A stretch of DNA of 64,000 bases from a bacterium (GTDB taxonomy: Bacteria; Zhuqueibacterota; Zhuqueibacteria; Zhuqueibacterales; Zhuqueibacteraceae). Below the pieces are notes generated by a model. The model saw only the letters and a program-made list of their open reading frames with translations, made no database searches and was not told the DNA's origin. Below are positions 48,393 through 64,000 of this stretch, in pieces. A program made the translations under genes and the position numbers. The DNA lies in assembly GCA_044869275.1 (NCBI GenBank), contig JBIOXB010000223.1, positions 32,001-96,000 on the forward strand, written 5' to 3'. The stretch's first letter is position 1. Each line of letters opens with the position of its first letter.

Positions 48393-48772
48393 CGCATGGC
48401 GTTTGAATTCTATCAACGAGATCATCAGCGTCGTGAAATCTTATTCATTATACCAGGTGATTTGAAAATTCACTGCAGTTACTCCCCCCATCTCAACCAG
48501 GGGACCCAAAGGGATCAGTCCTGCAAAAAAGCGAGTTCTGGCGTCCAAATTTATCACCTCCCAGCGAGTGAGTGTCTATTTAGAGTCGTAAGGCGTCTTT
48601 TGTGCGGTGAAATTCCATGCCGAGGAGGCGAAACGGAGAACGGCGGGCAGAGCATGCTTAAGCCAGGGTCAAATTTTAGTAAAGCTCGGAAGAAACACTT
48701 GCAATCAATCGAACTGCGAATCCACTAAGCGCTCCCATGCGCTCATGCAACATCACAATGGAGGCAATTCTC

Positions 48773-51700
48773 ATGGCGAACAAAATCTATGCATTGCTGG
48801 TGGGCATCAATGACTATGCTCCGGAAATCGGCAGGCTGGCCGGATGTCTCAATGATGTGGATCATTTTAAGGACTATTTGACCAGCGCTTTTGACAAAGC
48901 CAGTCTCGCCATTGAAGTGCTCAAAGAAGGCGAGGCCACGCGCGACAACATCATCAGACTGTTCCGCGCCCATCTCGGCCAGGCGAAGGCTGGTGACGTG
49001 GCCGTGTTCCAATATTCCGGCCATGGCGCGCGTTGGGCCGCTGCGAAGGAATTCAAAGAGTTCTATCCCGATGGCAAAGACGAGGGTCTGGTATGTCACG
49101 ACAGCCGCCGCAAAGACGGCACCTACCCCTTTGACCTGGCCGACAAAGAATTGGCGATGCTGCTTGCCGAGGTCGCAGCCAAAGATCCTCATCTTGCCGT
49201 TATTTTGGATTGCTGCCATTCCGGCTCCGGCACGCGCGACGTGGATGCGTTCACGCATTTGAAAGCGCGGCAAACCCACGAGGTTGCCGTGGAGCGTCCT
49301 CTCGACAGCTATCTTGACGGCCATTATGCCAAGCTGCGCCAACAGGGAAAAAAGTTGTCGATCCCGAGAAGCAAGCATATTTTATTGGCTGCTTGCGACC
49401 GCAAACAAAAGGCCTATGAGGCCACAGACCGCAGCGGGCTCTTTACCAGCACGCTGCTCAAGGTGTTGGAAAAATCCGGCAGCGATATCACTTATGCCGA
49501 TCTGTTCATGCGCTGCCGGGCGGAGATTCGCAAGGAAGCCGACAATCAGACGCCGCAATTCGAGGCCAACGAGAAGTTCAACGCCCTTGGCGGCTTTCTC
49601 GGGCGTAAGGCTTCTCACACAGCGCCTCGCTTCAGCGTGTATTTCAAGGATGGCAACTGGACTATCGATGCCGGTGCCTTGCACGGACTTCCCACTGCGC
49701 CGGAAAAAAGCGTCGGCTTGGCGCTTTATCCGGAAAATGAGCAGGCGCGTTTAGCCGGGCACGCGTCGACGGTTCAAGTGGGGCCGCAGAAGAGCGAGCT
49801 GCAGCTGGATTTTACCGGCGATCAAGCGGCGCGCTATTATGCCGAAGTCACCAGTCTACCGGTTGCGCCGATTCCGGTTTATGTCGATGGCGATGAGAAT
49901 GGCAAGACCATTCTCCGCAAGGCACTCAACCCTTCCATGGGCGTCGATTTAACTGACGTCGCCGAGGGCACCCGTTATGCGATCACCGCGCAAGAGGGAG
50001 TATTTCTGCTGAAACAGCGGGAATTGGATTTGCTCATCCAGGGCGTCAAGGGCGTGCTCGTGCGCGAGCGTAGCACGGGAAAAGAGGTGGCGACATATTC
50101 CGAAGAGTCCGCGCAAGTGGCGCTTGGCATTGTCAAGCAGGTTGCGCAATGGGAAAGAAGCCTTGCGCTGCAGAATCATGGAACGAAAATGGACACCTCG
50201 CTGGTTGACTTCATTTACACCGAGCAATTAAATGCCGGAAAGGAGTATGTCCATCCCTCGGGCGAGATTACGCTCGATTTGGTGAAATCCAAGGAACAAT
50301 GGCAAGAGATTCGGGGCAAATTCAAAGCGCGGAATAGCACTGAGCAAACGTTGCATTTTATTCTCGCTTATTTCTCCGCGTCGTATGGCATTCACATTTT
50401 GCGCAACGAAGAGGTTCCCCCGGGCAAAGAATTCGTTACTTTGTGGGGGGAGGATGAGAAGGACTATTTTTATTTGGAAGATCATGCCAATGAATCGCTG
50501 GAGAATTTCAAGCTGATTGTCAGCACTGAGCGGGTCGACGACTTTTTGTTGAGCCAGGATGATTTAGAACTCGGCAAGATCATCTCCTCTTTTCGTGCCG
50601 TGGGCACGATCAAGCCGATGAAAAAGTTGGTACATGAGAATGAATGGTTTACCAAAAGTATCCGCGTCAAAGTCGTGCGGCAACTCGACCAAGTGGGCGC
50701 GAAAGACGCGGGTCTGGCTAAAGGCAAGATCGTCGTCAAAGGCCATCCTACGCTCAAAGCCAATTTGAGTTTGAGCGCCGCCAAGGCTCCTTCTCGCAGC
50801 ATCGGGGAAGGAACTGATTTCTTCAAGGCTTTCGAGCGACAAGGCTTGGAGATGCTCAACTTTGCCGGCACGCGCGGCGATAACGAGAGCATATTGGAAT
50901 TGACCGATATTGAAAACGCTGAAGCGCTGGCAAAGAACCCGCTGGAGATTGACGTGAATGTCCCGCTCAATGCCGACGAGGGGATTCTCCCCCTGGTGTT
51001 CGACGGCCAGCACGTTTTGCTCGGCGGGGATACGTATAAAGACGAGCAGGGCAACACCCATATCAGCATCGACCACATTCCCGAGGTGCCGGACAACCGC
51101 CGCAGCGTTGGCAAGGCATTGAAGCTGTACTTTTTCAAAACTTATCTCAAGCAGGATAGCGTCAATCAATTGCGCTGGGTGGAGTACAAAGCCGACGGCA
51201 CGATAGCGCAGCACAAGACTATGATTGCCGAGAAAGTGAACGCGGCGCAGAACGTGGTGGTGCTGATGCACGGCCTCATCGGCGACACCGAAAACCTTGC
51301 CAAAACTCTGCGCATGATCAATGCCGGCGGTACAAGCCTCGATCAAAAATTCGATCTGGTGCTGACCTATGACTATGAAAACCTCAGCACGCCGCTGGCA
51401 GAGACGGCGCTCGATCTCAAAAAGAAGTTGGAAGCGGCCGGATTCGGCGCGAATGACAACAAAAAGCTTACACTCTTGACGCATTCCATGGGCGGCCTGG
51501 TGGGGCGCTGGTTTATCGAGCGCGAAGGCGGCAACACCATGGTCGATCATCTCGTCATGTGTGGCACGCCCAATCAGGGCTCGCCGTTTGGCAAAATCGA
51601 CGCGGCGCGCAAAATCTTGAACGTTTTGACCGGCGTGGCGATGAATTATGTTCCCGCGCTCATCCCGTTCAACGGCGCCATCATATTCCTGCTGAACCGT

Positions 51701-52057
51701 TCGAAAAAAATCACGCCCACGCTGGAGCAAATGAACTCGTCTTCCGAATTTATCACCACGCTCAACAGCAGCGGCGATCCCGGCATCCGCTACACCCTTC
51801 TCGCCGGGGACGTGGAGGCGTATCAGGAACCCTCGGATCAATTCTTTCAGCAGCTGTTGGCGAAAGCTGGAAAAGGTTTTGTGTTCAGCGCCCTTTTTGG
51901 CAGTGGCGCACACGATCTAGCGGCCGGCGTGGAGAGCGTGCTCGGCATCGCGGGCTCGCGCAATCCCATGCCCAAGCGCGGCAATGTCGCCTGCCATCAT
52001 TTGAATTATTTTGTTTCCGAAGCTGGGCAGAAGGCGCTGGCGGGAGTGGAGTGGTGA
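48773..52057 (+). CDS. Caspase-family (peptidase C14) protease fused to C-terminal alpha/beta-hydrolase
   Basis: RBS GGAGG; ALLVGINDY, LAGCLND, YSGHG (His), LDCCHSG (Cys); C-terminal MHGL, THSMGG, GTPNQGS, CHHLNYF. Confidence 0.9.
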   Translation: MANKIYALLVGINDYAPEIGRLAGCLNDVDHFKDYLTSAFDKASLAIEVLKEGEATRDNIIRLFRAHLGQAKAGDVAVFQYSGHGARWAAAKEFKEFYPDGKDEGLVCHDSRRKDGTYPFDLADKELAMLLAEVAAKDPHLAVILDCCHSGSGTRDVDAFTHLKARQTHEVAVERPLDSYLDGHYAKLRQQGKKLSIPRSKHILLAACDRKQKAYEATDRSGLFTSTLLKVLEKSGSDITYADLFMRCRAEIRKEADNQTPQFEANEKFNALGGFLGRKASHTAPRFSVYFKDGNWTIDAGALHGLPTAPEKSVGLALYPENEQARLAGHASTVQVGPQKSELQLDFTGDQAARYYAEVTSLPVAPIPVYVDGDENGKTILRKALNPSMGVDLTDVAEGTRYAITAQEGVFLLKQRELDLLIQGVKGVLVRERSTGKEVATYSEESAQVALGIVKQVAQWERSLALQNHGTKMDTSLVDFIYTEQLNAGKEYVHPSGEITLDLVKSKEQWQEIRGKFKARNSTEQTLHFILAYFSASYGIHILRNEEVPPGKEFVTLWGEDEKDYFYLEDHANESLENFKLIVSTERVDDFLLSQDDLELGKIISSFRAVGTIKPMKKLVHENEWFTKSIRVKVVRQLDQVGAKDAGLAKGKIVVKGHPTLKANLSLSAAKAPSRSIGEGTDFFKAFERQGLEMLNFAGTRGDNESILELTDIENAEALAKNPLEIDVNVPLNADEGILPLVFDGQHVLLGGDTYKDEQGNTHISIDHIPEVPDNRRSVGKALKLYFFKTYLKQDSVNQLRWVEYKADGTIAQHKTMIAEKVNAAQNVVVLMHGLIGDTENLAKTLRMINAGGTSLDQKFDLVLTYDYENLSTPLAETALDLKKKLEAAGFGANDNKKLTLLTHSMGGLVGRWFIEREGGNTMVDHLVMCGTPNQGSPFGKIDAARKILNVLTGVAMNYVPALIPFNGAIIFLLNRSKKITPTLEQMNSSSEFITTLNSSGDPGIRYTLLAGDVEAYQEPSDQFFQQLLAKAGKGFVFSALFGSGAHDLAAGVESVLGIAGSRNPMPKRGNVACHHLNYFVSEAGQKALAGVEW

Positions 52058-52092
52058 GGCTGGATGCCGGATCCTGGATGCTGGATCCTGGG
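52058..52092 (+). repeat. Heptamer tandem repeat (CTGGATC / CTGGATG)
   Basis: ggctggatgccggatcctggatgctggatcctggg immediately after the caspase stop. Confidence 0.65.
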
Positions 52093-52479
52093 GGCCGTGC
52101 ACGGTTAACTTGAGAATCACACCCTCAACCATGTCATTCTGAAAGAATCTTGCCACGAGCTGGGCACAATGCTTAGACGGTGCTTTATCCGAGCACCTGG
52201 GAAGCTTCAGCCCGTGCGAGCACTCTCGTTTCACCGCTCAGCGGTGGAACGCATGCAATGACGCTCTGCGTCCCAGAATGCTAGTCCATTGCTCCATTAC
52301 AAGTGAAATCTGTGCTTAGAGAAGTTTTCTGTTTTGATTTCCGTGGGAGTTCAGAGTAGCCGGAATTCGAAGCACAAAGCTCAAAGGGTGTTTTGAGATC
52401 TGCAATTCGAATTTTTATTTCGCTAAGCGCCTGTCCCGGATTTATTGGCGAGCTGAAAACCGATGCCCTGCGGGCGGCG

Positions 52480-52552
52480 CCAACGGATAGATCAAGACCA
52501 ACGGATGAAGGGACGAAAATGTTTTGTCCGTTGGCCTTAATCTATCCGTTGA
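52480..52552. repeat. CCAACGGAT/ATCCGTTG palindromic element, copy B1
   Basis: ccaacggatagatcaagaccaacggat...tccgttggccttaatctatccgttg; similar to 58348-58420. Confidence 0.75.
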
Positions 52553-52628
52553 TGAAAAAAGCCAGAGTATTATATTGAATTTAATTTTCTAATTTGCCTA
52601 ACCCAGTTTATCAAAAGAAGGAACTGCT

Positions 52629-53498
52629 ATGATCACCGAAGACTCATTGAAACAAATTATGCCTAAACTCCCGGACGCCAAGCGTGCGGCATTGCTGCCG
52701 GCATTGCAGAGCGCAATGAATGAGTTCGGTGTGAACACGCCGAAGCGCGAAGCCGCGTTTCTGGCGCAAATCGCCCACGAGTCCGGGGAATTAACCGTCT
52801 TTGCCGAGAACCTGAATTACTCGGCCAAAGGCTTGATGGCAACCTGGCCCAAACGCTTCCCCGATCCCGCCACAGCGCAGAAGTATGAGCGGAATCCGGA
52901 GAAGCTGGCCAACTACGTTTATGCGAATCGCGTTGGCAACGGCAATGAAGCGAGCGGCGACGGTTGGCGGTTTCGCGGCCGTGGCCCCATTCAAATTACC
53001 GGACGCGAGAACTATCAAAAATATGGCAGTCGACTGAATGTCGATATCATCAATAATTCCGACAAAGCCGCCACGCCGGAGGTCGGGTTTCGCGTTGCGG
53101 GTTTGTATTGGAAAGAAAACGGCTTGAATGAGCTTGCCGACAGTGAAATGTTCGAGACCATCACGAAGCGGATCAATGGCGGAACCAAAGGCCTCGAGGA
53201 GCGCAGGCAATACTACACACGCGCGAAAACTGTGTTGGGCGTGCCGCTCTCTCGCGGCATGGCGATACCGGAATCCATGCAAGACATTGATCTCGTTCCA
53301 GAGTTCACGCGCGGGCGCGAGGCGCAAGAAGATACCAAGCCGCCGGTCAGGAAAACACGCAAGGCGCGCGTGAAAAAAAGCAAACGTGCGGCCGCAAAGA
53401 AAAAAGTTGCCAAGAAGAAAGTGGCCAAGAAAACCGCCGGCAGCAAAACGCGCGCACGGGCAAAGGCAAAGCCCAAAGCCGCCAAGCGCCGGAAATAA
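52629..53498 (+). CDS. Glycoside hydrolase family 19 (endolysin/chitinase-like) with Lys/Ala-rich histone-H1-like tail
   Basis: FLAQIAHES, ENLNYS, GDGWRFRGRGPIQITGRENY, TKRINGG; tail KKKVAKKKVAKK. Confidence 0.92.
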   Translation: MITEDSLKQIMPKLPDAKRAALLPALQSAMNEFGVNTPKREAAFLAQIAHESGELTVFAENLNYSAKGLMATWPKRFPDPATAQKYERNPEKLANYVYANRVGNGNEASGDGWRFRGRGPIQITGRENYQKYGSRLNVDIINNSDKAATPEVGFRVAGLYWKENGLNELADSEMFETITKRINGGTKGLEERRQYYTRAKTVLGVPLSRGMAIPESMQDIDLVPEFTRGREAQEDTKPPVRKTRKARVKKSKRAAAKKKVAKKKVAKKTAGSKTRARAKAKPKAAKRRK

Positions 53499-53546
53499 GC
53501 ATTGAGGCATTATAGTCGAATTCGTACGCCATATGGCGCTCAAAGT

Positions 53547-53669
53547 CAGAACAAAATTCTGAAAATTTCTTCGCCAATGAAGGAGAAGCGACCAACGAAT
53601 TCAGGAAAATCCGTTGGTCGTTTTTTGATCCGTTGGAGCGTTTTTGGTCTAAAGTTGCTCCGTAAGGAG
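53547..53669. repeat. CCAACGGAT/ATCCGTTGG palindromic element, copy A2
   Basis: Direct match to 42546-42669. Confidence 0.8.
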
Positions 53670-54086
53670 TTTTGGTTTTCAGCTTGTCTGAAAACATCGG
53701 AAGACAGAAAGATGGAGGACAGAAAAATGTTTGCCGTTTGCTCCATGCTGTCATTGTCCACTTCCCTGGCTTAATCGCGAACGCCATTTTTCTGTCTTTC
53801 ATTTTTCTGTCTTGGCCTTTGGTTAAGCCAATTGAACAATTCCAAGATAAGAATTCTCTATCTCTCTTTGTTCAGCCGCCCGCAGAGCTTCGATTTCTAG
53901 CTTGTTTGAAAATCTGAGGTAGAAGGTTAGTCATCTGAAACAGGTTCTCTCCCACGGAAATGGAACTGCCACGGAAAAATTGTTTTCAATTCCGTGTGAG
54001 TTCCATTTCCGTGGGCGATTTTTGGGCTTGGGCTTCAATTTGTTTCGCACTCAGTTTTTATAGCTTGCTTACGTGCAAAATAACCT

Positions 54087-57000
54087 ATGGTACAATCAAA
54101 CGATCAGCAAAACACCAAACCCGTCATCTTCCTCGCCTTCGCCCAAGACCGCGTCGAAGGCGGCGCGTATTTGCGCAACCTGCCCATCGAGCTGGACGGC
54201 ATTCTAGAAGCGTTGCAAAAGGCGGAGCAGGCAGGGCTGTGCGAGGTGAAACATCGATCCAATACCACGGTCAAGAATATTCTCGACATCTTCCAGCAGT
54301 ATCAGGATCGCATCGCCATTTTTCATTACGGCGGACATGCTGACAGCTACGAGCTTTTGCTCGAGTCCTTGACCGGCGAGCACGCGATGGCGCACAGCGA
54401 AGGGCTGGTTTCTTTTCTTGCCAAACAAAAAAGTCTGCGGCTCATTTTCCTAAACGGCTGCTCTTCTCGGCAGCAGGCATTGGACTTGACCGAGGCGGGC
54501 GTGCCGGCCGTAATCGGCACTTCGCAAAAAATCGACGATGAGATCGCAACCAATTTGTCAGGGCGCTTTTACAAAGGCCTCGCTGCCGGCCTCTCGCTTG
54601 ATCGCGCCTGGGCGGAAGCCATCGATCAAATCAAAGTGGAGAAAGGCACCAGCAATACCCGCGCACTGCATTGGAAAGGCAAAGTTGAAGCCAGCGACGG
54701 TATTCCGTGGGACATCTATTATCGCAAGGGCGCGGAGATTGTTAAGGAATGGAATCTGCCGGCGGCTGCGAATCAACCTCTGTTTGGCTTGCCGCTGCCG
54801 GAAGTTTATTACCGCAAGTTGCCGGCTGCGCCGTTTCTCTGGTTGAATGATTTCAGGAGAGAAGACGCCGCCATCTTTTTCGGCCGCGGCGCCGAGATTC
54901 GGAAACTGTACACGCAGTTGACCACCGGCATGCAACCGATCATTCTGTACTACGGAAAAGCCGGCGTGGGAAAATCTTCCCTGCTGCAAGCCGGCCTGGC
55001 GCCGCGCATTGAAAACGATTATGCCGTCAAATATATCTGCCGCCTCCCGGCGAAAGGATTGACCGGCACTTTGCTGCAGGCCCTGCAAGAAGTAGGTGAC
55101 GAGCTCGGACTGCCGCCGGTTGAACCTGCCGAGAAAGACACCCTCCGCACCAAAATCGAGGAGCTGCAAAAAGCTTTGGAGGGCAGCGCGGGATTCACCC
55201 GGCAAGTGCTGGAAAGCGAGCTGCAAAAACTCACCGCGCTTGCCGGCGAGAGCCTTTTGTTTTCAGCACATTGGCGGCGGATCGAAGATAAAACCAACCG
55301 GCCATTAGTGGTCATGCTCGATCAAGTGGAGGAAAAATCTACCCGCCCCGCGCCTGACGACAGAGAATCTGCCGATGAATTGGAGATCTTCCTCGAGACC
55401 GTGCGGAGTATTTTTGACCAACAAGACCTGCCCCTGCGGGGAAAACTCATTCTCAGTTGCCGCGAAGAATATCAGCCCGCGATGCGTGCGGCCTTGCAAG
55501 CGTTTTCACTGCCTTTTGCGGAAGCATTTCTTCCGCCACTGGGCTGGCAGGGAATTGTCGAAGCGACGGAAGGTGTGACCACGCATCCTTCGACTCGCGA
55601 TCAGTATCACCTGGAAATTGAAAATTACAAGGGTAGTAATTTGCCGGAGATCATCGCCGACGATATGCTGGAAAGCGAGGAATCTCCGCTTGCGCCGATG
55701 CTGCAAGTGGTGCTGACCGAGTTATGGAGAGGCGCAGTTAAAGAAAACACCAAAGCGCCGCGTCTGAGCGTGCGGCAATATCAGGAGCTCAAGCAATCGG
55801 GCGCCAGCATGGGTGAATTTTTCAAACAGCGCATGGCGGAAGTGCAGGAGTGGCAGAAAACCGTCGTGACGTCCGGTTTGACACTGGACTTGCTCTACCG
55901 GCATATCACGCCCGCCGGTGCTGCCGCGAGCCTGAGCCGGGAGCAACTGCATGACATCTACTGCGACCGCGAGCAGGTCATTGATCAGCTTATGGCGAAG
56001 TGCCAAGACCTTTATCTGTTGACTGATTTTCAGCTGCGCGGCACCAGCCTGGCGCATCATCTGCTCGCGCCGGTGGTGATCAAGGAATACAGCAATTCCG
56101 TTATGCCCGGCCAGCAAGCCGCCCGCATTTTGAACAGCAAGATCGAGGAATTTCGTGCCAATGAAAAAGACATCTGGCTGAATGATGCGGATTTGGAAAT
56201 TGTGGAAAACGGCAAAGCCGGCATGCGGCAGTTGCATGCCGATGAAGAGAAGCTGTTGCAGATCAGCCGGGAGCGCAAGGCGCAGCGGGAAAAAGAGCGA
56301 AAGCGCAATCGCGTCATACGCAACGTTTTGGCAACTTTCATTTTCCTGTTTGCCATATTAGCCGGTTGGCAATGGCAAGTGTCGGAGCGCAACTATAAGC
56401 AAGCCAAGGCGAGCCAACTGGCGTTCATCGCGGGCGAGGCTTTCAATTCCGACAACACGAAAGCGCTGCGCATTGCCGAAGCGGCTTACGCGATTTTGGG
56501 TGAGCATTCGCCGGCGGCGGTGACGCGAACGTTGAGTGAGATTTTTCATTCCCAAGACCTGAGGCCGTTTTATGCGGCGAATTTTCCTCACGATGAACCC
56601 GTCAATACGGCGGTGTTTTCGCCGGATGGCCAGCAAATTCTCACCGCCTCGGAAGGCGGGTCTGCCAGGCTCTGGGATCGGCGCGGAGAATTGATCCACA
56701 CTTTTGATCATGAGGGCTACGACGTCACCTCCGCCGCCTTTTCCCCCAATGGCAAGCAAATTCTTACGCTCGCCAACGATATCGTCAGGCTTTGGGAAAT
56801 GAATGGGAAACTTGTCGATGGCGATACGCTGCAACCCGAGCAAGCAACCGACTTAGCCGATTTATCGACCGACGGCATGCGGATTCTAAAAGTGTTTGCC
56901 GGTAGCGATGATGAAAAATACCGCGCGCTGATCCATCGTCTCAAGCAAGAAAATGGAATTGCCGAAGTCATTCCCGCTTCGAACCGGCAGCGGATTCTCA

Positions 57001-58328
57001 CCATCTCATCCGATGGCACTGTGACGCTGCTGAATGGGGAAGGGAAAATCCTGAAGGCAATTGATAGCAGCGTAGTTTCTGCCGCTTTGTCGCCCGACGG
57101 CAAGCGCCTGTTGACCGTGGCCTTCGACAGCCTCAGCACCATCCGGTTTTGGGACGAGCAGGGAAGTTTCCTCGGAAGTTTCAAGTATAGAGGAGAAGTG
57201 AACAAAGCCGCTTTCTCCCCGGACGGCAGGCAGATTCTCACCGCCGCCGCCGACCATACGGCAAAACTCTGGGAGGTTTCACAGAAATTCACCCAGCACT
57301 TGCCGCGCCACAGTTTGGGAGTCTCCACCGCGGTGTTTTCTCCAGATGGGAAGCGTATCCTCACTGCTTCACACGATGGATTCGCCCGGCTTTGGGATGA
57401 ACAAGGAAATCCGCTCGACAGTCTCAAGCATGGCGGCGTGGTGAACGCGGCGGTTTTTTCACCTGAAGGCAATCGAATTCTAACGGCGGCTAGGGACGGC
57501 ACTGCCCGGCTGTGGCTGCGCGATGAGGCGCGAGTGGTCAACTTGCCGCATCGGGGAGAAGTCAACTCCGCGCTGTTCTCTCCCGACAATGGCAGCCGGA
57601 TTCTCACGGCTTCAAGCGACAGCACCGCCAGATTATGGACTGGAAACGGCGTTCCGATTGATACACTTGAGCATCACGGTGAGGTGCGTGCCGCAGTCTT
57701 TTCGCCCGACGGCCGGCAAATTCTGACGGCGTCATCCGACGGCACGGCGACATTGTGGTGGGCAAGCGGCGTTTTGATCAGGATATTCAAGCATGATGAC
57801 GAAGTTATTTCGGCAGTCTATTCGCTGGACGGGAAGCGGATTTTGACCGCCTGTGCGGATGGCGCGGTAAGATTATTTGCGGTCAATGGTGATTCGCTTG
57901 GAACTTTTAAGCATCATGATAAAATCAAGCTCGCGGTTTTTTTGCCTGAGGGCCGGCGCCTGTTGACGGCAAGCAGTATGGTCTGGCTCTGGGACGAAGC
58001 GGGGAAGCCGCTCGTTAGTGTCGCACACACTGCGGCGGTCACCTCGGTGGATTTCTCCCCCGATGGCAAGCACCTGCTTACGGCTTCAATCGACCAAAGC
58101 GCCAAGCTGTGGAACCTACAAGGCGAGTTGCAGGCAGATTACGACAAACACGAACTGCCGGTGAATTCGGCGCGTTTTTCACCCGACGGCGAAAAAATTA
58201 TCACCGCCTCGGTCGATGGGCAAGTGATGATCTGGTGGACACCGCGAGCCATTTACGATTGGCTGAAAACCGCGCCGCTTTACCGGATCACGCGGCAGGA
58301 AGAAGAATTGTATGGAATCGTGCAGTAG
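54087..58328 (+). CDS. CHAT protease - STAND (nSTAND1-like) NTPase - TM - WD40 repeat protein
   Basis: FHYGGHA and FLNGC dyad, FFGR, YGKAGVGKSS (Walker A), MLDQVEE (Walker B), TM VLATFIFLFAILAGW, many FSPDG..ILTAS.D.TA.LW repeats. Confidence 0.92.
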   Translation: MVQSNDQQNTKPVIFLAFAQDRVEGGAYLRNLPIELDGILEALQKAEQAGLCEVKHRSNTTVKNILDIFQQYQDRIAIFHYGGHADSYELLLESLTGEHAMAHSEGLVSFLAKQKSLRLIFLNGCSSRQQALDLTEAGVPAVIGTSQKIDDEIATNLSGRFYKGLAAGLSLDRAWAEAIDQIKVEKGTSNTRALHWKGKVEASDGIPWDIYYRKGAEIVKEWNLPAAANQPLFGLPLPEVYYRKLPAAPFLWLNDFRREDAAIFFGRGAEIRKLYTQLTTGMQPIILYYGKAGVGKSSLLQAGLAPRIENDYAVKYICRLPAKGLTGTLLQALQEVGDELGLPPVEPAEKDTLRTKIEELQKALEGSAGFTRQVLESELQKLTALAGESLLFSAHWRRIEDKTNRPLVVMLDQVEEKSTRPAPDDRESADELEIFLETVRSIFDQQDLPLRGKLILSCREEYQPAMRAALQAFSLPFAEAFLPPLGWQGIVEATEGVTTHPSTRDQYHLEIENYKGSNLPEIIADDMLESEESPLAPMLQVVLTELWRGAVKENTKAPRLSVRQYQELKQSGASMGEFFKQRMAEVQEWQKTVVTSGLTLDLLYRHITPAGAAASLSREQLHDIYCDREQVIDQLMAKCQDLYLLTDFQLRGTSLAHHLLAPVVIKEYSNSVMPGQQAARILNSKIEEFRANEKDIWLNDADLEIVENGKAGMRQLHADEEKLLQISRERKAQREKERKRNRVIRNVLATFIFLFAILAGWQWQVSERNYKQAKASQLAFIAGEAFNSDNTKALRIAEAAYAILGEHSPAAVTRTLSEIFHSQDLRPFYAANFPHDEPVNTAVFSPDGQQILTASEGGSARLWDRRGELIHTFDHEGYDVTSAAFSPNGKQILTLANDIVRLWEMNGKLVDGDTLQPEQATDLADLSTDGMRILKVFAGSDDEKYRALIHRLKQENGIAEVIPASNRQRILTISSDGTVTLLNGEGKILKAIDSSVVSAALSPDGKRLLTVAFDSLSTIRFWDEQGSFLGSFKYRGEVNKAAFSPDGRQILTAAADHTAKLWEVSQKFTQHLPRHSLGVSTAVFSPDGKRILTASHDGFARLWDEQGNPLDSLKHGGVVNAAVFSPEGNRILTAARDGTARLWLRDEARVVNLPHRGEVNSALFSPDNGSRILTASSDSTARLWTGNGVPIDTLEHHGEVRAAVFSPDGRQILTASSDGTATLWWASGVLIRIFKHDDEVISAVYSLDGKRILTACADGAVRLFAVNGDSLGTFKHHDKIKLAVFLPEGRRLLTASSMVWLWDEAGKPLVSVAHTAAVTSVDFSPDGKHLLTASIDQSAKLWNLQGELQADYDKHELPVNSARFSPDGEKIITASVDGQVMIWWTPRAIYDWLKTAPLYRITRQEEELYGIVQ

Positions 58329-58347
58329 GGAAGATTTTAAGAAATCT

Positions 58348-58420
58348 CCAACGGATAGATTAAGTCCAACGGATAAAACTCTTAGTCTTTTCATCAGTTG
58401 GTCTTAATCTATCTGCTGGC
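58348..58420. repeat. CCAACGGAT palindromic element, copy B2
   Basis: ccaacggatagattaagtccaacggat...atcagttggtcttaatctatctgctgg. Confidence 0.72.
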
Positions 58421-58530
58421 GATAAAAAGCTGGAGTTTTATTCTAAGTTTGTTTGCCTAAGCGCCTATGCCGAATTTTCAACCGCGCTGAAAACAGAAGC
58501 TCTTCAAGCAACCTTAAATCAGAAGCTTTT

Positions 58531-58749
58531 GAACACGAATAACGCGGATGACACGGATCGTCGCAGATTTTTGTTTTTGCTGCGAATGAGCAGTTGTAAA
58601 ACAAGAAAGCCTAAGGCATACAGTCAAAAATAATTGGAAGCCAAAATCATTGAAAGAGTCTCAATCATTTTGACTTTAACACTCCCTCGAAACTTTCATA
58701 TTCTTGCTCTATCCGTGTTCCTCCGCGCAATCCGTGTCATCCGCGTTCA
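58531..58749. repeat. Long-spaced inverted repeat of nonamer units (ACACGGAT/ATCCGTGT)
   Basis: gaacacgaataacgcggatgacacggat ... atccgtgttcctccgcgcaatccgtgtcatccgcgttc between convergent genes. Confidence 0.7.
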
Positions 58750-58800
58750 AAAAATCAAGAAACTCCCAAAATATCATTCTGTGTTTGTGTGCTTTATGGC

Positions 58801-60327
58801 TTAATAGTACGCAAAATCAGTCAAGATAGCGCAGGCTTCCATCAAATAATTGAAGAGCCGCTCCTGGCTCGTCATCTCTTCCCGGTTATTCACGACAATC
58901 ACCACACCGAGAAAATCATTTTGGTCGATTGTGAGCGTGGCAAAAAGCTCGGCGACGATGGATTCACCGTCGGCGCCATAGACTACTCGATCCTTGAGCG
59001 CACCAAGATAGGGATCGTCGGGATCATCCATCCAATCTTCAATCTCATCTTCATTATTTTCTTCCACTACCCAGTTCCGTCCATCGCTCACCATGTATTG
59101 CTCAAACCAATCCCATGCTGCTTTGCTATTTTCTACGGAGGCCGTAGCCTGAACTGATAAAAACATGGTCGTGCCGGCGCGGGGGCTGGAGACCTTGATC
59201 AGGGTATGGCCGCCCTCTTGCACGGCGCTCAATTTGCTGCCGGTTGGAATGGCAATGGTCGCCCCGTTTTCCTCGTCCTGAAAAACGTCGAGGGACTGGC
59301 TGAACAACTCTTGCAGCGTGATCCTGCCATTTTCAAAGTGCTCTTCGTCTTGCAGCAGCTCCTGGATGTACTTTTGGTCCTCCTCAAACATGGTCTCATA
59401 AATCTCCTGGAAGGGCGCGCGATAGTCCAGCGCTAAAACCAATTTGTCGCCGTTGTCATCGGCAAATCTAAAGGGCTGCTCTTGGGCAGCCGCTAAAGCA
59501 CGCGCCAGCTCGGCGGATTTTGGGTCCAGATGGGGATTGTCTGCCCGCAGGCCGCTATAAAGCCTTTCAGAGGTGCATGCGCTTGCGGGAGCCGCGGTTG
59601 ATCCCGCGCTCATTAATTTGGTAAAATTGCCGGCCGCAGGTATGGCCCAAATAAAGCCTTTGCCATTGATAGGCGGGCCGCCGTCAACCATGCCGACGAT
59701 ATGGCCTTGATAAGTCAGCGGTGAGCCGGAATGCGCCTTGCGGATGTTTTTTTCCTCAAATTTAAAAACACTGGTCTTCAAGGTCGGGTAATTGCTTTGG
59801 CCATCCGAGCAGAGCGCCTGCGCCAAAGCGGCCGAGTTCTGTTCGAGCCGGTTATCCAATTGCTCCAAAGGGACGGCGCGATCGAGCTTGGTTTCCTTTT
59901 TATCCATTCTGGATATCTTCTCCGGAGCCTCCCAAAAGTTGAGCGGCGTGTCCATGGGAGCATCTCCCGGATAGACTTTGAGTGCGGGAATGTTCGGTGG
60001 GGTGGAAGCCTGCAAGCGCAAAAGCGCCAGATCAGCCGGCGTATAGATTTTTTCAAGCTTGGCGGGAAATTCTTGATTTTTCCACACGACGGTTATCGGC
60101 GACCTGCCGGCAACGACGTGAAGCGCGGTGATGATGTTGCCGGGGCTGCCATAAGCCACACCGTAACCTGAGGCCTTGCCGGCATGGACGAGCACGACAG
60201 ATTCCTGCTGGCCTGCAGCGGGTGCAACCGCCAATAACAAGGCGGCCCAAAAGAGACTGATGCAGATTGCCAAGGAGTAAACATGGACCCTCCGAGTGAC
60301 ACAGTTCATAACACAACTTTGTCTCAT
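58801..60327 (-). CDS. Secreted trypsin-like serine protease with acidic C-terminal domain
   Basis: Signal peptide, ITALHVV (His), DLALL (Asp), AHSGSP (Ser). Confidence 0.82.
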   Translation of the reverse strand: MRQSCVMNCVTRRVHVYSLAICISLFWAALLLAVAPAAGQQESVVLVHAGKASGYGVAYGSPGNIITALHVVAGRSPITVVWKNQEFPAKLEKIYTPADLALLRLQASTPPNIPALKVYPGDAPMDTPLNFWEAPEKISRMDKKETKLDRAVPLEQLDNRLEQNSAALAQALCSDGQSNYPTLKTSVFKFEEKNIRKAHSGSPLTYQGHIVGMVDGGPPINGKGFIWAIPAAGNFTKLMSAGSTAAPASACTSERLYSGLRADNPHLDPKSAELARALAAAQEQPFRFADDNGDKLVLALDYRAPFQEIYETMFEEDQKYIQELLQDEEHFENGRITLQELFSQSLDVFQDEENGATIAIPTGSKLSAVQEGGHTLIKVSSPRAGTTMFLSVQATASVENSKAAWDWFEQYMVSDGRNWVVEENNEDEIEDWMDDPDDPYLGALKDRVVYGADGESIVAELFATLTIDQNDFLGVVIVVNNREEMTSQERLFNYLMEACAILTDFAYY

Positions 60328-60590: not shown

Positions 60591-60708
60591 AACTCGCCTC
60601 CTTAACAATGAGTTTTGGAATGGATTGTTGTAAAAATATAACTATATTACTATGATTCGCAAGCCAAATCTCTTTAGCAGATACCACTTTGAATCCGGGC
60701 CGCCGCCC

Positions 60709-63700
60709 ATGAACCTGCATCTTCCTTTTGTCCTTTGCTCGAGCGGTATTTTTTATTGCGTCGCGTTGTCGGCCCAAACTTTTTCAACCGGCACCGGCGA
60801 GCAGCTTAAATTTGAGCATCTTTCGGTGGAGCAAGGACTTTCACAAAACACGGTGCAGTGTGTCTTGCAAGATCGCCAAGGATTCATGTGGTTTGGCACG
60901 CAGGACGGGCTGAATAAGTATGATGGATTCGGTTTTGTGGTCTACAAACCCGATCCGCAGAGTCCTCTGAGCCTGAGCGACAATCGGATCGAGTCGCTCT
61001 ATGAAGACCGCGCGGGAGTGCTGTGGATTGGAACGCGAAACGGCGGGCTTAATCAATTCGATCCGGGAACAGAAACGTTCCGGCGTTATCAACACGACCC
61101 CCAAAATCTCCAAAGCTTGAGCAACAATAACATCATCTCCATTTACGAAGATCGTTCGGGAATGCTATGGATCGGAACCGAAAACGGACTCAATCAACTT
61201 GATCGTGCAACCAAAACATTCAGGCGTTATCAACACCAGCCCGAGAATCCGCACAGCCTGCCGCACAATGCGGCCAGCTCAATTTACGAAGACCAGGAGG
61301 GAGTGTTGTGGGTTGGTACCTGGGGTGGCGGGCTTTCTCATATGAGCCGGGAGGATCGGGCCACAGTTACGTTCCGGCATTTTCAGTATGATCCCGAAAA
61401 TCCTCAAAGCTTGAGCGACAATTGGGTAAGATCAATCTCTGAGGACAAAAACGGGGTGCTGTGGGTTGCTACTAAAAGCGGCTTGGCTTGCTTAACGCGA
61501 GAGAATCGAAAGGCGGGAACCTTCCAGCGTTATCAACGCAACCGCCAAAACCCCCTGCGCTTGAGTCACAATGACGTTTGGCCACTCTATATCGACCGGT
61601 CCGGCGTGCTCTGGATCGGAACGCATGGTGGGGGACTCAATCAGTTCGATCAAGCTGCTGGAACCTTCCGGCATTTTGGGCACGACTCGCAGAATTCTCA
61701 TAGCTTGAGTAGCGATGAAGTGTTCTCCATCTATGAAGATCAATCCGGGGAAATATGGATTGGCACCAGGGAGGGAGTCAATCGCTTCAATCGAACGCCA
61801 GAACCTTTCCGGCATTACCAGCACGACGCTAATAACCCTCGCAGCTTGAGCGACAATTCCATTTGGTCGATCCACGAAGACCACTCTGGCAGCGTCTGGA
61901 TTGGAACCTTGAGTGGCGGCCTCGATCAATTTGATCGCGCGACCGAAAGCTTCAGACACTATCAAAATGACCCGAATGATCCTTATAGCTTGAGCAACAA
62001 CTCGATCTGGGCTACCTATGAAGATCGCGCTGGAGAGATGTGGGTTGGTGCGCAAGGGGGGCTTTCACGCATGAGCTGGGATGGCCGCGGCCAAGCAAGA
62101 TTTCGGAACTATCAACATGATCCCCAGAATTTCCAGAGCTTAAGTCATAACTGGGTCACCTCAATTTATGAAGACTCCGTTCAGCCGGGAGTGCTATGGA
62201 TTGGAACCTGGGGTGGCGGACTCAACCGCTTTGATCGCACCACCGGAACCTTCCGACATTTTCGACTCGATGCCAACGATCCGCGCAGCTTGAGCTCAAA
62301 TGCAGTCTGGTCGATTTATCACGATCAATCGGGAAGGTTATGGATTGCAACCGAGGCCGAGGGGCTTAATGAATTTGATCGCGCCACCGAAACCTTTCGG
62401 CGCTATCAACACGAACCCATGAATCCGAATAGCTTGAGTAGTAACTCGATCTGGTCAATTTATGAAGATCGCAATCGTGTGCTGTGGCTTGGTACCAGAG
62501 CGGGGCTCAATCAATTCGATCCCCGCAAGGAAACTTTCAAGCACTACCGGGAAAAAGACGGTTTGCCGAATGATGTGATCTACGGCATCTTGGAAGATGA
62601 TCACGGCAATCTCTGGCTGAGCACCAATAAAGGCCTATCCAGATTCAACCCCCAAACAGAGATTTTTCGAAACTTTGACGTGCGTGACGGGTTGCAGAGC
62701 AATGAGTTTAACGCGGATGCCGCTTTTCGCAGCCGCAACGGAGAAATGTTTTTTGGTGGAATCAATGGTTTCAATGTTTTTCATCCCGACAGCATCAAAG
62801 ACAATCCTTACGTTCCGCCCGTGGTCATCACCGGGCTGAAACGATACAACACCGACGTTCCGGAGGGCATTGCCCTCGCGGAAAAAGGCATGGCAGCAAG
62901 ATCAGGCATCGAGCTTTCCTATAAAGACGAAATTCTTGTCTTCGAGGTGGCGGCGCTCAATTATCGCAACAGCGCAAAGAATCAATATGCCTATAAATTG
63001 GAAGGATTGCACGACCGGTGGATTCAGCTTGGCACCAAGCGTGAGATCACTTTCACCAATCTCGATCCCCGCGAGTACACGTTGCGAGTGAAAGGCTCCA
63101 ACAACGATGGCGTTTGGAATGAAGAGGGCACGTCGCTCAAAATCACCATTACGCCGCCCTGGTGGCGAACGCGCTGGGCGTATGCGCTGTATGGGTTGCT
63201 GTTGATCGCCGGCATTTTCGCCACGGATCGGATGATGCGCCGGCGGCTGCTGGCTAAAGAACGGGCGCACGCGCAAATCCGTGAGGCCGAGCTGCGTGCG
63301 CGCGCGGCGGAGGCGCAAATCCAGGTGGTCGAGACCCAGGCGAAAGTCCTGCAAGCAGAGAATGAACGCAAGGAATCGGAATTGCAGAGGGCGGCCGAAC
63401 TTAAATCGGCTTATGAGGCTTTGGGAAAGGCTCATGAGCACTTGCAAAACACGCAGCAGCAGCTTATCACCCAGGCAAAATTGGCTTCGCTGGGCCAGCT
63501 CACCGCCGGAGTCGCACACGAGATCAAGAACCCCTTGAACTTTGTGAATAATTTTGCCGCGCTGTCGGTGGATTTGGCCAAGGAGCTGCGGCAGGAGATA
63601 ACGAAGATCGAGGATGGTGGAGCGAGGATCGTGGATCGTGAAAGCTTTGCAAACGTCGAGGGGATTTTAGAGGTGCTGATTCAAAACGCTGAGAAGATCA

Positions 63701-64000
63701 ATCATCACGGCAAGCGCGCGGATAACATTGTGAAGAGCATGATGCAGCATGCGCGTGGCGCGTCGCAAGAACGTGAGCTGTCGGATATCAATCAATTGTT
63801 GGACGAAGCGGTAAATTTAGTGTATCACGGCCTGCGCGCTCAGGATAGATCCTTCAATGTTTCGATCGAAAGAGCCTACGATGCCAACTTGAGCAAGCTC
63901 AGCGTCGTGCCGCAGGGCATCAGCCGCGTGTTTTTGAATATGATCAACAATGCGTGCTACGCGGCGCACCAAAAGGCGAAGGAGAGAACGGGTGACAGGG
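60709..64000 (+). CDS. Sensor histidine kinase (Reg_prop propeller, Y_Y_Y, TM, HisKA), 3'-truncated by window edge; absent from the ORF track
   Basis: Manual translation MNLHLPF...FEHLSVEQGLSQNTV..QDRQGFMWFGTQDGLN; the same frame gives PPWWRTRWAY and AHEIKNPLNFVNNFA. Confidence 0.92.
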   Translation, partial: MNLHLPFVLCSSGIFYCVALSAQTFSTGTGEQLKFEHLSVEQGLSQNTVQCVLQDRQGFMWFGTQDGLNKYDGFGFVVYKPDPQSPLSLSDNRIESLYEDRAGVLWIGTRNGGLNQFDPGTETFRRYQHDPQNLQSLSNNNIISIYEDRSGMLWIGTENGLNQLDRATKTFRRYQHQPENPHSLPHNAASSIYEDQEGVLWVGTWGGGLSHMSREDRATVTFRHFQYDPENPQSLSDNWVRSISEDKNGVLWVATKSGLACLTRENRKAGTFQRYQRNRQNPLRLSHNDVWPLYIDRSGVLWIGTHGGGLNQFDQAAGTFRHFGHDSQNSHSLSSDEVFSIYEDQSGEIWIGTREGVNRFNRTPEPFRHYQHDANNPRSLSDNSIWSIHEDHSGSVWIGTLSGGLDQFDRATESFRHYQNDPNDPYSLSNNSIWATYEDRAGEMWVGAQGGLSRMSWDGRGQARFRNYQHDPQNFQSLSHNWVTSIYEDSVQPGVLWIGTWGGGLNRFDRTTGTFRHFRLDANDPRSLSSNAVWSIYHDQSGRLWIATEAEGLNEFDRATETFRRYQHEPMNPNSLSSNSIWSIYEDRNRVLWLGTRAGLNQFDPRKETFKHYREKDGLPNDVIYGILEDDHGNLWLSTNKGLSRFNPQTEIFRNFDVRDGLQSNEFNADAAFRSRNGEMFFGGINGFNVFHPDSIKDNPYVPPVVITGLKRYNTDVPEGIALAEKGMAARSGIELSYKDEILVFEVAALNYRNSAKNQYAYKLEGLHDRWIQLGTKREITFTNLDPREYTLRVKGSNNDGVWNEEGTSLKITITPPWWRTRWAYALYGLLLIAGIFATDRMMRRRLLAKERAHAQIREAELRARAAEAQIQVVETQAKVLQAENERKESELQRAAELKSAYEALGKAHEHLQNTQQQLITQAKLASLGQLTAGVAHEIKNPLNFVNNFAALSVDLAKELRQEITKIEDGGARIVDRESFANVEGILEVLIQNAEKINHHGKRADNIVKSMMQHARGASQERELSDINQLLDEAVNLVYHGLRAQDRSFNVSIERAYDANLSKLSVVPQGISRVFLNMINNACYAAHQKAKERTGDR

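Follow-up and report, generated by a model that had tools for sequence, protein, structure and literature searches.

A caspase-hydrolase, a tailed GH19 endolysin-type enzyme and a CHAT-nSTAND1-WD40 receptor as a candidate proteolytic cell-killing module in a Zhuqueibacteraceae genome

Why should a bacterium encode, close together and on one strand, a caspase joined to a lipase-like hydrolase, a peptidoglycan-degrading enzyme that lacks a signal peptide, and a second protease built into a membrane receptor? The question is raised by three intact plus-strand open reading frames (ORFs), here genes 1 to 3, at 48773-52057 (1094 amino acids, aa), 52629-53498 (289 aa) and 54087-58328 (1413 aa) of a 64,000-nucleotide stretch, the window, which covers positions 32,001 to 96,000 of contig JBIOXB010000223.1 (assembly GCA_044869275.1; Zhuqueibacteraceae). 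The answer that is, on balance, probably correct is that they form a membrane-anchored cell-killing module, serving immunity or conflict, in which a sensor would trigger an Arg-specific proteolytic cascade leading to membrane damage and wall lysis. An earlier sequence-only reading had picked out the three co-oriented genes, two intact caspase-superfamily dyads, a THSMGG alpha/beta-hydrolase, a signal-less GH19 and a STAND ATPase with WD40 repeats, all of which hold up in the analyses described below; the middle region of gene 1, the conserved Arg motifs, the tail of the GH19 and a convergent trypsin-like gene were absent from it.

Fundamental to this answer is whether the genes belong together at all. 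Gene 1 is patchily distributed in its phylum (14/167 genomes), with all five genomes of one genus keeping it, and in 11 of the 13 other genomes that have it a protease-STAND gene or pair lies on the same contig within about 14 kb, the remaining two loci being cut by short contigs. For a broader count 95 gene 1 loci were pooled from the phylum genomes, GTDB and metagenomes (the best 80 of 303), labelled with locus-derived profiles supplemented by Pfam checks on subsets and one label added later, and collapsed at 90% identity to 82, of which 48 short loci were excluded and 34, with at least 3 kb downstream and at least 1 kb upstream, were scored. A second caspase-fold protease occurs within 8 kb in 28 of the 34 (within 1.5 kb in 22), STAND in 25, a peptidoglycan enzyme in 7 and GH19 in 5, against a random-position background of 3.1% for the second protease and 1.0% for STAND, which derives from the one genome under study and is set beside loci among which kin are not independent samples. 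Gene 1 also matches 107 plasmid records, and in all seven of the best that were examined (five cyanobacterial, Rhizobium and Deinococcus, with gene 1 identity of about 30%) a CHAT or caspase partner is adjacent, within about 3 kb, or fused, one locus consisting of a 3057-aa fusion of gene 1 with a caspase-STAND protein. Across loci and plasmids the constant core is thus the caspase-middle region with a further protease that is linked to a STAND or TPR sensor, and the GH19, and even the hydrolase, are exchangeable accessories. The linkage in other genomes on which the sequence-only reading depended is therefore present, and across phyla. Chance neighbours in a CHAT/STAND-rich genome (it has 13 CHAT, 5 nSTAND1 and 3 C14 matches, and the gaps here are long) are largely refuted by this cross-phylum linkage, the fusions, the 3-nt gaps of relatives and the common motifs, and are very improbable.

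The gaps themselves (571 nt between gene 1 and the GH19, 588 nt between the GH19 and gene 3) had been taken by the sequence-only reading as a weakness for a single operon, a concern that falls away. At other places the genome holds up to 32 and up to 72 overlapping copies of their repeats (82 and 169 matches, with none for two coding controls), and of nine relatives examined, seven have a GH19-to-gene 3 gap of 3 nt, one of 148 nt and one of 289 nt; with dispersed repeats here and 3 nt in most relatives, the gaps are no argument against one unit. The repeats are short palindromes of several families, at 20-70 copies per genome, and fill 52058-52628, 53499-54086 and also 58329-58800. Among the contigs listed from three DNA runs none bridges the GH19-gene 3 gap.

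Gene 1 has an alternative in-frame ATG at 48737, but its homologues begin at 48773, upstream of which lies a GGAGG. Pfam recognises Peptidase_C14 at aa 6-265 (E 1e-24) and a DUF7379/alpha-beta hydrolase at aa 830-972; the H84/C148 dyad of the former and S905 (of THSMGG) and D1048 of the latter are invariant in 96/96 homologues, with H1076 present in 95/96. In an AlphaFold2 model from the 96-row alignment (pLDDT 81, pTM 0.73) the solved structures nearest to the caspase domain (aa 1-280) are metacaspases (Z 27.0 to 3bij, root-mean-square deviation 2.9 over 242 aligned residues, and Z 25.4 to metacaspase 9), and aa 795-1094 resemble lipases (Z 17.3 to BlEst2, deviation 3.9 over 224 aligned, and 16.5 to the phospholipase PlaB). 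In metacaspases two acidic Asp residues form the S1 pocket for Arg or Lys, and the corresponding D28 and D146 are kept in 86/88 and 88/88 full-length homologues. With its His/Cys dyad, acidic S1 residues and fold, the gene 1 caspase domain is a metacaspase/orthocaspase. Metacaspases are described as cleaving after Arg or Lys (bioRxiv 10.1101/2023.06.23.546230). Between the two catalytic domains lies a middle region of about 510 aa that belongs to no Pfam family and that forms several beta-rich domains in the model; folded alone without an alignment it reaches pLDDT 35, the whole-model fold searches scarcely probed it, and an Atlas match to DUF4384 (score 0.82) is a lead only. It is matched by 761 clusters at 50% identity, which makes the gene 1 family a large one, and a shorter form of about 640 aa without the hydrolase occurs among the relatives.

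The second strand of evidence is a shared arginine motif. In 88 full-length homologues (rows of 1030-1230 aa plus gene 1; median identity 36%) Arg is kept at R155 in 86, at R608 in 52 (with Lys in a further 13), at R675 in 80, at R701 in 66 and at R777 in 83, and R[GS] falls within 5 residues of the five sites in 48-84% of rows, compared with a mean of 4% (maximum 18%) over 37 control windows. All five sites are coil in the model, two of them in or beside low-confidence loops, and R155 stands seven residues past the catalytic Cys. PCaspase is presumably cut at an equivalent place, R153 (C146+7). The density of [TS]RG per 1000 aa is 2.2 in the gene 1 family and 4.4 in the GH19 family, against 0.42 genome-wide and 0.16 for the gene 3 family, and in a peptidoglycan-binding enzyme that adjoins gene 1 in other loci an L-R-G is invariant in 8/8 rows. 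In Lysobacter, a caspase cleaves its partner hydrolase at R↓G sites that are conserved, and death follows (bioRxiv 10.1101/2025.11.14.688446), and the Thoeris IV caspase requires Arg at P1 and prefers small flanking residues. The Arg-small motifs of gene 1, and those of the GH19 linker described below, are putative cleavage sites that match the R↓G of a characterised caspase-hydrolase pair, and at the level of sequence they add support for the proteolytic release of both hydrolases.

The peptidoglycan-binding enzyme just mentioned is a signal-less PG_binding_1 protein found upstream of gene 1 (L057:11486-12742; also L070, L086, L087, L103, L112 and L140), with a conserved H-W-G-G...W-S-E-G-C, and is once fused behind CHAT-STAND-transmembrane. 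On that pattern we take it to be L,D-transpeptidase-like.

What, then, would activate the caspase? The partner protease varies (CHAT or C14, on STAND or TPR) around a constant caspase-middle region, and every Arg site suits the predicted specificity of the gene 1 caspase itself, so that the STAND oligomer might recruit gene 1 through the middle region and the caspase activate itself by proximity, in an apoptosome-like manner, leaving CHAT to cut other targets. This is unlikely, given that the partner dyad is intact in 119/120 homologues and that in the nearest precedent CHAT directly cleaves, and so activates, the caspase (PCaspase; bioRxiv 10.1101/2023.06.23.546230). When gene 1 aa 1-640 and the CHAT domain were modelled as a complex the score was 0.01, which speaks neither for nor against either view.

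Gene 2 is a GH19 (E 1e-8) with no hydrophobic segment, in which E51 and E60 are each present in 119/120 homologues. A chitinase identity was rejected because the protein is far nearer to phage endolysins (a lytic enzyme matches with E 4e-76, the best plant-type sequence with 2e-18); judged by this proximity and the Glu pair, it belongs to the GH19 endolysin subfamily. Its other feature is a tail, shared by 97/120 homologues. R209 and T227-R228-G229 are invariant in 12/12 locus-derived homologues, and within the first 45 residues past the catalytic domain 78 of the 97 tailed GH19s have TRG (2.9 expected from shuffling) and 90 have [TSVA]R[GS], in linkers that are often otherwise unalignable; this represents conservation through common descent, with no independent origin. 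Tailed GH19s are present in 11/167 genomes of the phylum, in nine of which (one of another family) gene 1 is on the same contig no more than 8 kb away; of the remaining two, one has it on a short contig, flanked by CHAT and STAND genes, and one has it as an orphan. The prediction that tailed GH19s adjoin caspases and untailed ones do not was checked in 401 Burkholderiales genomes, where one of 35 GH19 matches is tailed and has, about 0.2 kb away, a caspase gene and, after it, a hydrolase-CHAT-TPR gene; caspase, CHAT or STAND occurs in the surrounding 16 kb for 0/18 untailed controls (drawn from 34 and picked for long flanks). A second sample of 401 genomes gave 11 GH19 matches, none clearly tailed and one with internal stops; a plasmid search with the tailed query gave only untailed lysins among the 15 matches listed, and no GH19 match was found in five distant gene 1 genomes.

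The Burkholderiales locus (L203:9067-19969, G226:C14) holds the tailed GH19, the caspase, a 1.9-kaa DUF7379-CHAT-TPR-S protein with several [TS]RG, and hydrolase-TPR-S and MAP3K_TRAF_bd genes; it is apparently a separate caspase system with the same motif.

Against whose wall would such an enzyme be directed? GH19 and the peptidoglycan-binding enzyme are also found fused behind the STAND transmembrane segment, on the periplasmic side, and polycationic tails can cross outer membranes. The GH19 might then be aimed outward, at a periplasmic predator or at a competitor after release, or act as a peptidoglycan sensor, and not attack its own wall. This is improbable: the conserved protease-type sites separate the catalytic domain from the tail, which processing would remove, and the standalone form has no signal peptide. 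The fusions are nSTAND1-transmembrane-GH19 and CHAT-nSTAND1-GH19 proteins (L060:3077-5200 and protein P0174) that keep the catalytic Glu and thus place a lysozyme domain in the sensor position.

Gene 3 comprises CHAT (aa 13-188, E 2e-11), nSTAND1 (aa 249-647, E 7e-25) and C-terminal WD40 repeats. H84 and C125 are each present in 119/120 homologues and Walker A G290/G293/G295/K296 in 120/120; from its N-terminal effector, intact Walker motifs and C-terminal repeats it is placed in the nSTAND1 protease-sensor class, which resembles nucleotide-binding leucine-rich-repeat receptors (NLRs). The hydropathy scan finds one transmembrane segment, at about 743-761; 88/120 homologues have one behind STAND, with basic residues richer on the STAND side in 87 of the 88. 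By this positive-inside distribution CHAT and STAND are probably cytoplasmic and the C-terminal domain periplasmic. The C-termini of the homologues are mostly WD40, with Lcl_C listed for 21/120, FGE for 2 and GH19 for 1, and TPR and RDD are also found on STAND neighbours, so the sensor varies from one close relative to the next, by exchange or by diversification. One paralogue, whose CHAT is 69% identical and whose sensor is Lcl_C, is the target of a diversity-generating retroelement (DGR), with bAvd and reverse transcriptase (RT) genes adjoining and 8/11 mismatches between template and variable repeats (TR and VR) on template adenines. Such targeting fits a ligand-binding sensor under diversification, by analogy with nSTAND1-CLec proteins, for which this has been proposed (bioRxiv 10.1101/2023.09.22.558884). 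None of the three genes showed an EAD adaptor.

The bAvd/RT DGRs at L233:1197-8386 (G009:C76) and L235:4673-9519 (G015:C3) target CHAT-nSTAND1-transmembrane-Lcl_C paralogues of gene 3; in L233, where the TR was checked, a second Lcl_C target is present.

Related loci carry further variants. Between gene 1 and the GH19 in L053 (10439-17301), and also in G010, G012, G016, L092, L148 and L161, there is a split module of CHAT with an unknown 360-aa domain, followed by an effector-less nSTAND1-transmembrane-WD40 gene. The GH19 slot may be occupied by a MnuA-like exonuclease-endonuclease-phosphatase (L063:10343-11377, L066:18756-19844, L077:13354-14436, L112), in which no conserved RG motif was seen, and clostripain-family proteases adjoin gene 1 homologues at L136:16227-17570 (with T-R-G and S-R-G motifs) and L088:81-1379. 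In L136 (9872-16329) a 1118-aa gene 1 and a 1614-aa caspase-STAND gene, read from one strand but in different frames, share about 1.7 kb, which reflects either a long overlap or an alternative start. Directly 3' of gene 1 in L084 (13373-14551) a 393-aa protein without a family match looks, by eye, like a peptidase M15 fragment and a lysozyme-like domain. Finally, a gasdermin-like ORF (L163:11943-12665, a metagenome contig) lies between a hydrolase-less caspase-middle gene and CHAT-EAD11. Its Atlas score is 0.98 to clusters with 12-33% Bact_GSDM and its TM-score 0.53 to a gasdermin cluster; it has no Pfam, PADLOC or PDB-sequence match and a weak NCBIfam one (E 0.065). That the effector slot holds a gasdermin-like gene suggests that the output is damage to the membrane; the gene occurs in this one related locus, and the locus under study has no gasdermin.

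From the gene content, catalytic integrity, linkage and motif conservation set out above, the cell-killing module would work as follows. The periplasm-facing WD40 of gene 3 would bind a foreign or damage signal, as its topology and the swappable sensors suggest, and nSTAND1 would oligomerise, as STAND biology leads one to expect, rendering the cytoplasmic CHAT active. By analogy with SAVED-CHAT and PCaspase, CHAT would then cut or license the gene 1 metacaspase, probably at R155. The Arg-specific caspase could next (i) cut its own loops at R608, R675, R701 and R777, freeing the lipase-like hydrolase, and (ii) cut the GH19 linker at R209 and R228, removing the polycationic tail. A signal-less GH19 endolysin needs a breach in the membrane. 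The hydrolase might supply it by damaging the inner membrane in a holin-like way, upon which the GH19 would reach and degrade the peptidoglycan and the cell would lyse. The cascade of the sequence-only reading is thus borne out in its linkage and refined in two respects, the WD40 lying beyond the membrane segment, probably in the periplasm, and the GH19 and hydrolase being exchangeable. A wider claim is tentative and somewhat doubtful, namely that this is a widespread 'bacterial inflammasome with built-in lysis cassette' that combines a transmembrane NLR-like receptor, a two-step cascade, a shared (T/S)R↓G code and a domesticated endolysin with a holin-substitute phospholipase; it would make a protease-gated peptidoglycan hydrolase an immune effector and extend the same code to other plug-in effectors.

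Several observations weigh against a cell-killing module of this composition. A second protease is missing from the neighbourhood of gene 1 in six of the 34 loci, the GH19 is a minority accessory (5/34), and related sequences are not independent samples. The orphan tailed GH19 belongs to genome G018 (59% complete), and the Burkholderiales GH19 has R-R-G in place of TRG and a differing architecture, and therefore counts as one supporting case and not as a statistic. A Runella CHAT is described as cutting after Leu, so the CHAT here need not be Arg-specific. WD40 divergence among orthologues is no greater than STAND divergence, and in the same-genus genome G001 (L051:16771-20000) gene 3 is frameshifted within CHAT, with gene 1 and the GH19 intact and a caspase-nSTAND1-WD40 gene gained beside gene 1, a possible partner replacement. 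The locus is surrounded by sensor kinases, with no evident defence island, and the PADLOC check proposed by the sequence-only reading (2023 library) returned generic caspase and HEAT matches and no system.

The features of the locus are collected in Table 1. Upstream (17788-48392) and downstream (60652-64000) there is a dense cluster of Reg_prop/Y_Y_Y sensor histidine kinases with a PP2C/anti-sigma partner-switch set, an adenylate cyclase and PrsW, and one kinase of the Reg_prop/Y_Y_Y type is often found inside related caspase loci. A prophage origin was rejected, there being no phage genes among the window proteins scanned.

Table 1. Features of the three-gene locus and its convergent neighbour (window coordinates)
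Feature	Coordinates	Strand	Basis or remarks
Gene 1 metacaspase-type C14 domain (aa 1-280)	48773..49612	+	H84/C148, D28/D146, T154-R155, Z scores
Gene 1 middle region (aa 281-794)	49613..51154	+	beta-rich domains, no Pfam family; putative cleavage sites R608, R675, R701, R776/777
Gene 1 alpha/beta-hydrolase (DUF7379; lipase/PGAP1-like)	51155..52057	+	predicted triad S905-D1048-H1076
Gap of dispersed palindromic repeats, not system-specific	52058..52628	.	genome repeat counts
Gene 2 catalytic GH19 domain (aa 1-204), endolysin type	52629..53240	+	E51/E60, no signal peptide
Gene 2 linker S208-R209-G210, T227-R228-G229, then Lys/Ala/Arg-rich tail	53241..53498	+	alignments
Gap of dispersed repeats	53499..54086	.	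repeat counts; 3 nt in 7/9 relatives
Gene 3 CHAT protease (H84/C125; conserved R192)	54087..54761	+	domain match, alignment
Gene 3 nSTAND1 ATPase	54831..56027	+	Walker A 290-297, Walker B 406-416
Gene 3 single transmembrane helix after basic stretch	56313..56369	+	hydropathy scan
Gene 3 WD40 propellers, predicted periplasmic sensor	56589..58328	+	domain matches, topology
Trypsin-like protease, convergent	58801..60327	-	signal-peptide-like N-terminus judged by eye

The trypsin-like gene is convergent with the STAND gene here, in seven KSB1 relatives and in two Calditrichia loci, and its product could make or destroy the ligand of the periplasmic WD40; a different trypsin lies 3' of paralogous STAND genes in five genomes. 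This secreted-type protease after STAND, here and in nine relatives, the setting amid periplasmic-sensor histidine kinases and the retention of the module in 5/5 genomes of one genus would suit a non-lethal envelope-stress or developmental relay, in which the trypsin and WD40 sense cues and proteolysis tunes lipid and wall remodelling. Such a relay is quite unlikely, since the module is patchy, plasmid-borne and often rearranged, a sensor paralogue is DGR-mutated, a gasdermin-like gene is found as a neighbour, and a signal-less endolysin has no export route.

If the cell-killing reading is true, a CHAT-to-caspase cascade would be driven by an outward-looking membrane receptor, where the described one is driven by signals from clustered regularly interspaced short palindromic repeats (CRISPR) systems; a lysin would serve as effector, its activity held back by a basic tail that can be cut off; and the substrates of bacterial caspases would become predictable from sequence through a simple conserved Arg motif. 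It also suggests a function, open to test, for some of the many caspase and CHAT-STAND-WD40 genes that are uncharacterised in environmental bacteria, and the size of the gene 1 family and its presence on plasmids of cultured cyanobacteria, Rhizobium and Deinococcus make direct tests practical. The three-part architecture and a caspase-gated GH19 were not found in literature searches of abstracts and some supplements, outside which lay subscription papers and bioRxiv supplements, and DUF7379 did not occur in the literature search.

How does the module compare with known systems? With SAVED-CHAT/PCaspase of the Haliangium type III-B CRISPR system (bioRxiv 10.1101/2023.06.23.546230) it has in common a CHAT initiator and a C14 executioner, here with intact dyads at similar spacing (H79/C146 in PCaspase, H84/C148 in gene 1), and activation by oligomerisation with an abortive outcome is likened to the mechanism proposed here. 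The trigger is nSTAND1-transmembrane-WD40 in place of cyclic tri-adenylate (cA3) and SAVED, and CRISPR, cyclase, PCi, sigma factor and kinase are lacking; the caspase differs from PCaspase in its middle region, fused hydrolase and attached lysin. Without SAVED and CRISPR the module is not a member of that system, no SAVED, Cas or cyclase domain having been found on the three genes or among 24 window proteins scanned. Evans et al. count PCaspase-type modules as abundant, and gene 1 may fall within their tally.

Another system that works in a like manner is LcCaspase/LcHydrolase (bioRxiv 10.1101/2025.11.14.688446; PMC7159879), a caspase and a lipase-like hydrolase with conserved R↓G sites, also tied to STAND and beta-propeller sensors. 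By its description LcHydrolase is a separate protein of about 300 aa with two internal cuts, whereas here caspase and hydrolase, likewise co-encoded with conserved R↓G-type sites, are fused in one protein with the sites upstream of the hydrolase core, alongside an additional protease and a lysin. The nSTAND1 counter-invader systems (PMC8195603; bioRxiv 10.1101/2023.09.22.558884) resemble gene 3 in having an N-terminal protease, nSTAND1 and a variable, sometimes periplasmic, sensor, and the DGR diversification of nSTAND1-CLec is paralleled by the close gene 3 paralogue; the caspase-middle-hydrolase partner and the tailed GH19 do not appear in the available descriptions. For Avs/bNACHT there is no PADLOC Avs model match, only a generic HEAT-ARM match on the WD40 region. 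In bacterial gasdermin systems (bioRxiv 10.1101/2021.06.07.447441) C14 or CHAT proteases fused to WD40, NACHT or TPR release a membrane-damaging effector, as proposed here, although this locus, lacking a gasdermin, has enzymes as its predicted effectors. Phage holin-endolysin cassettes share the signal-less GH19 muramidase (PDB 9eoi, 9ms6, 4ok7) and differ in that the gene here is chromosomal and non-prophage, has a protease-site linker and basic tail, and has no holin or spanin seen beside it. Set among these systems the module is real and conserved, and its new elements would be the cleavable lysin and the shared Arg code.

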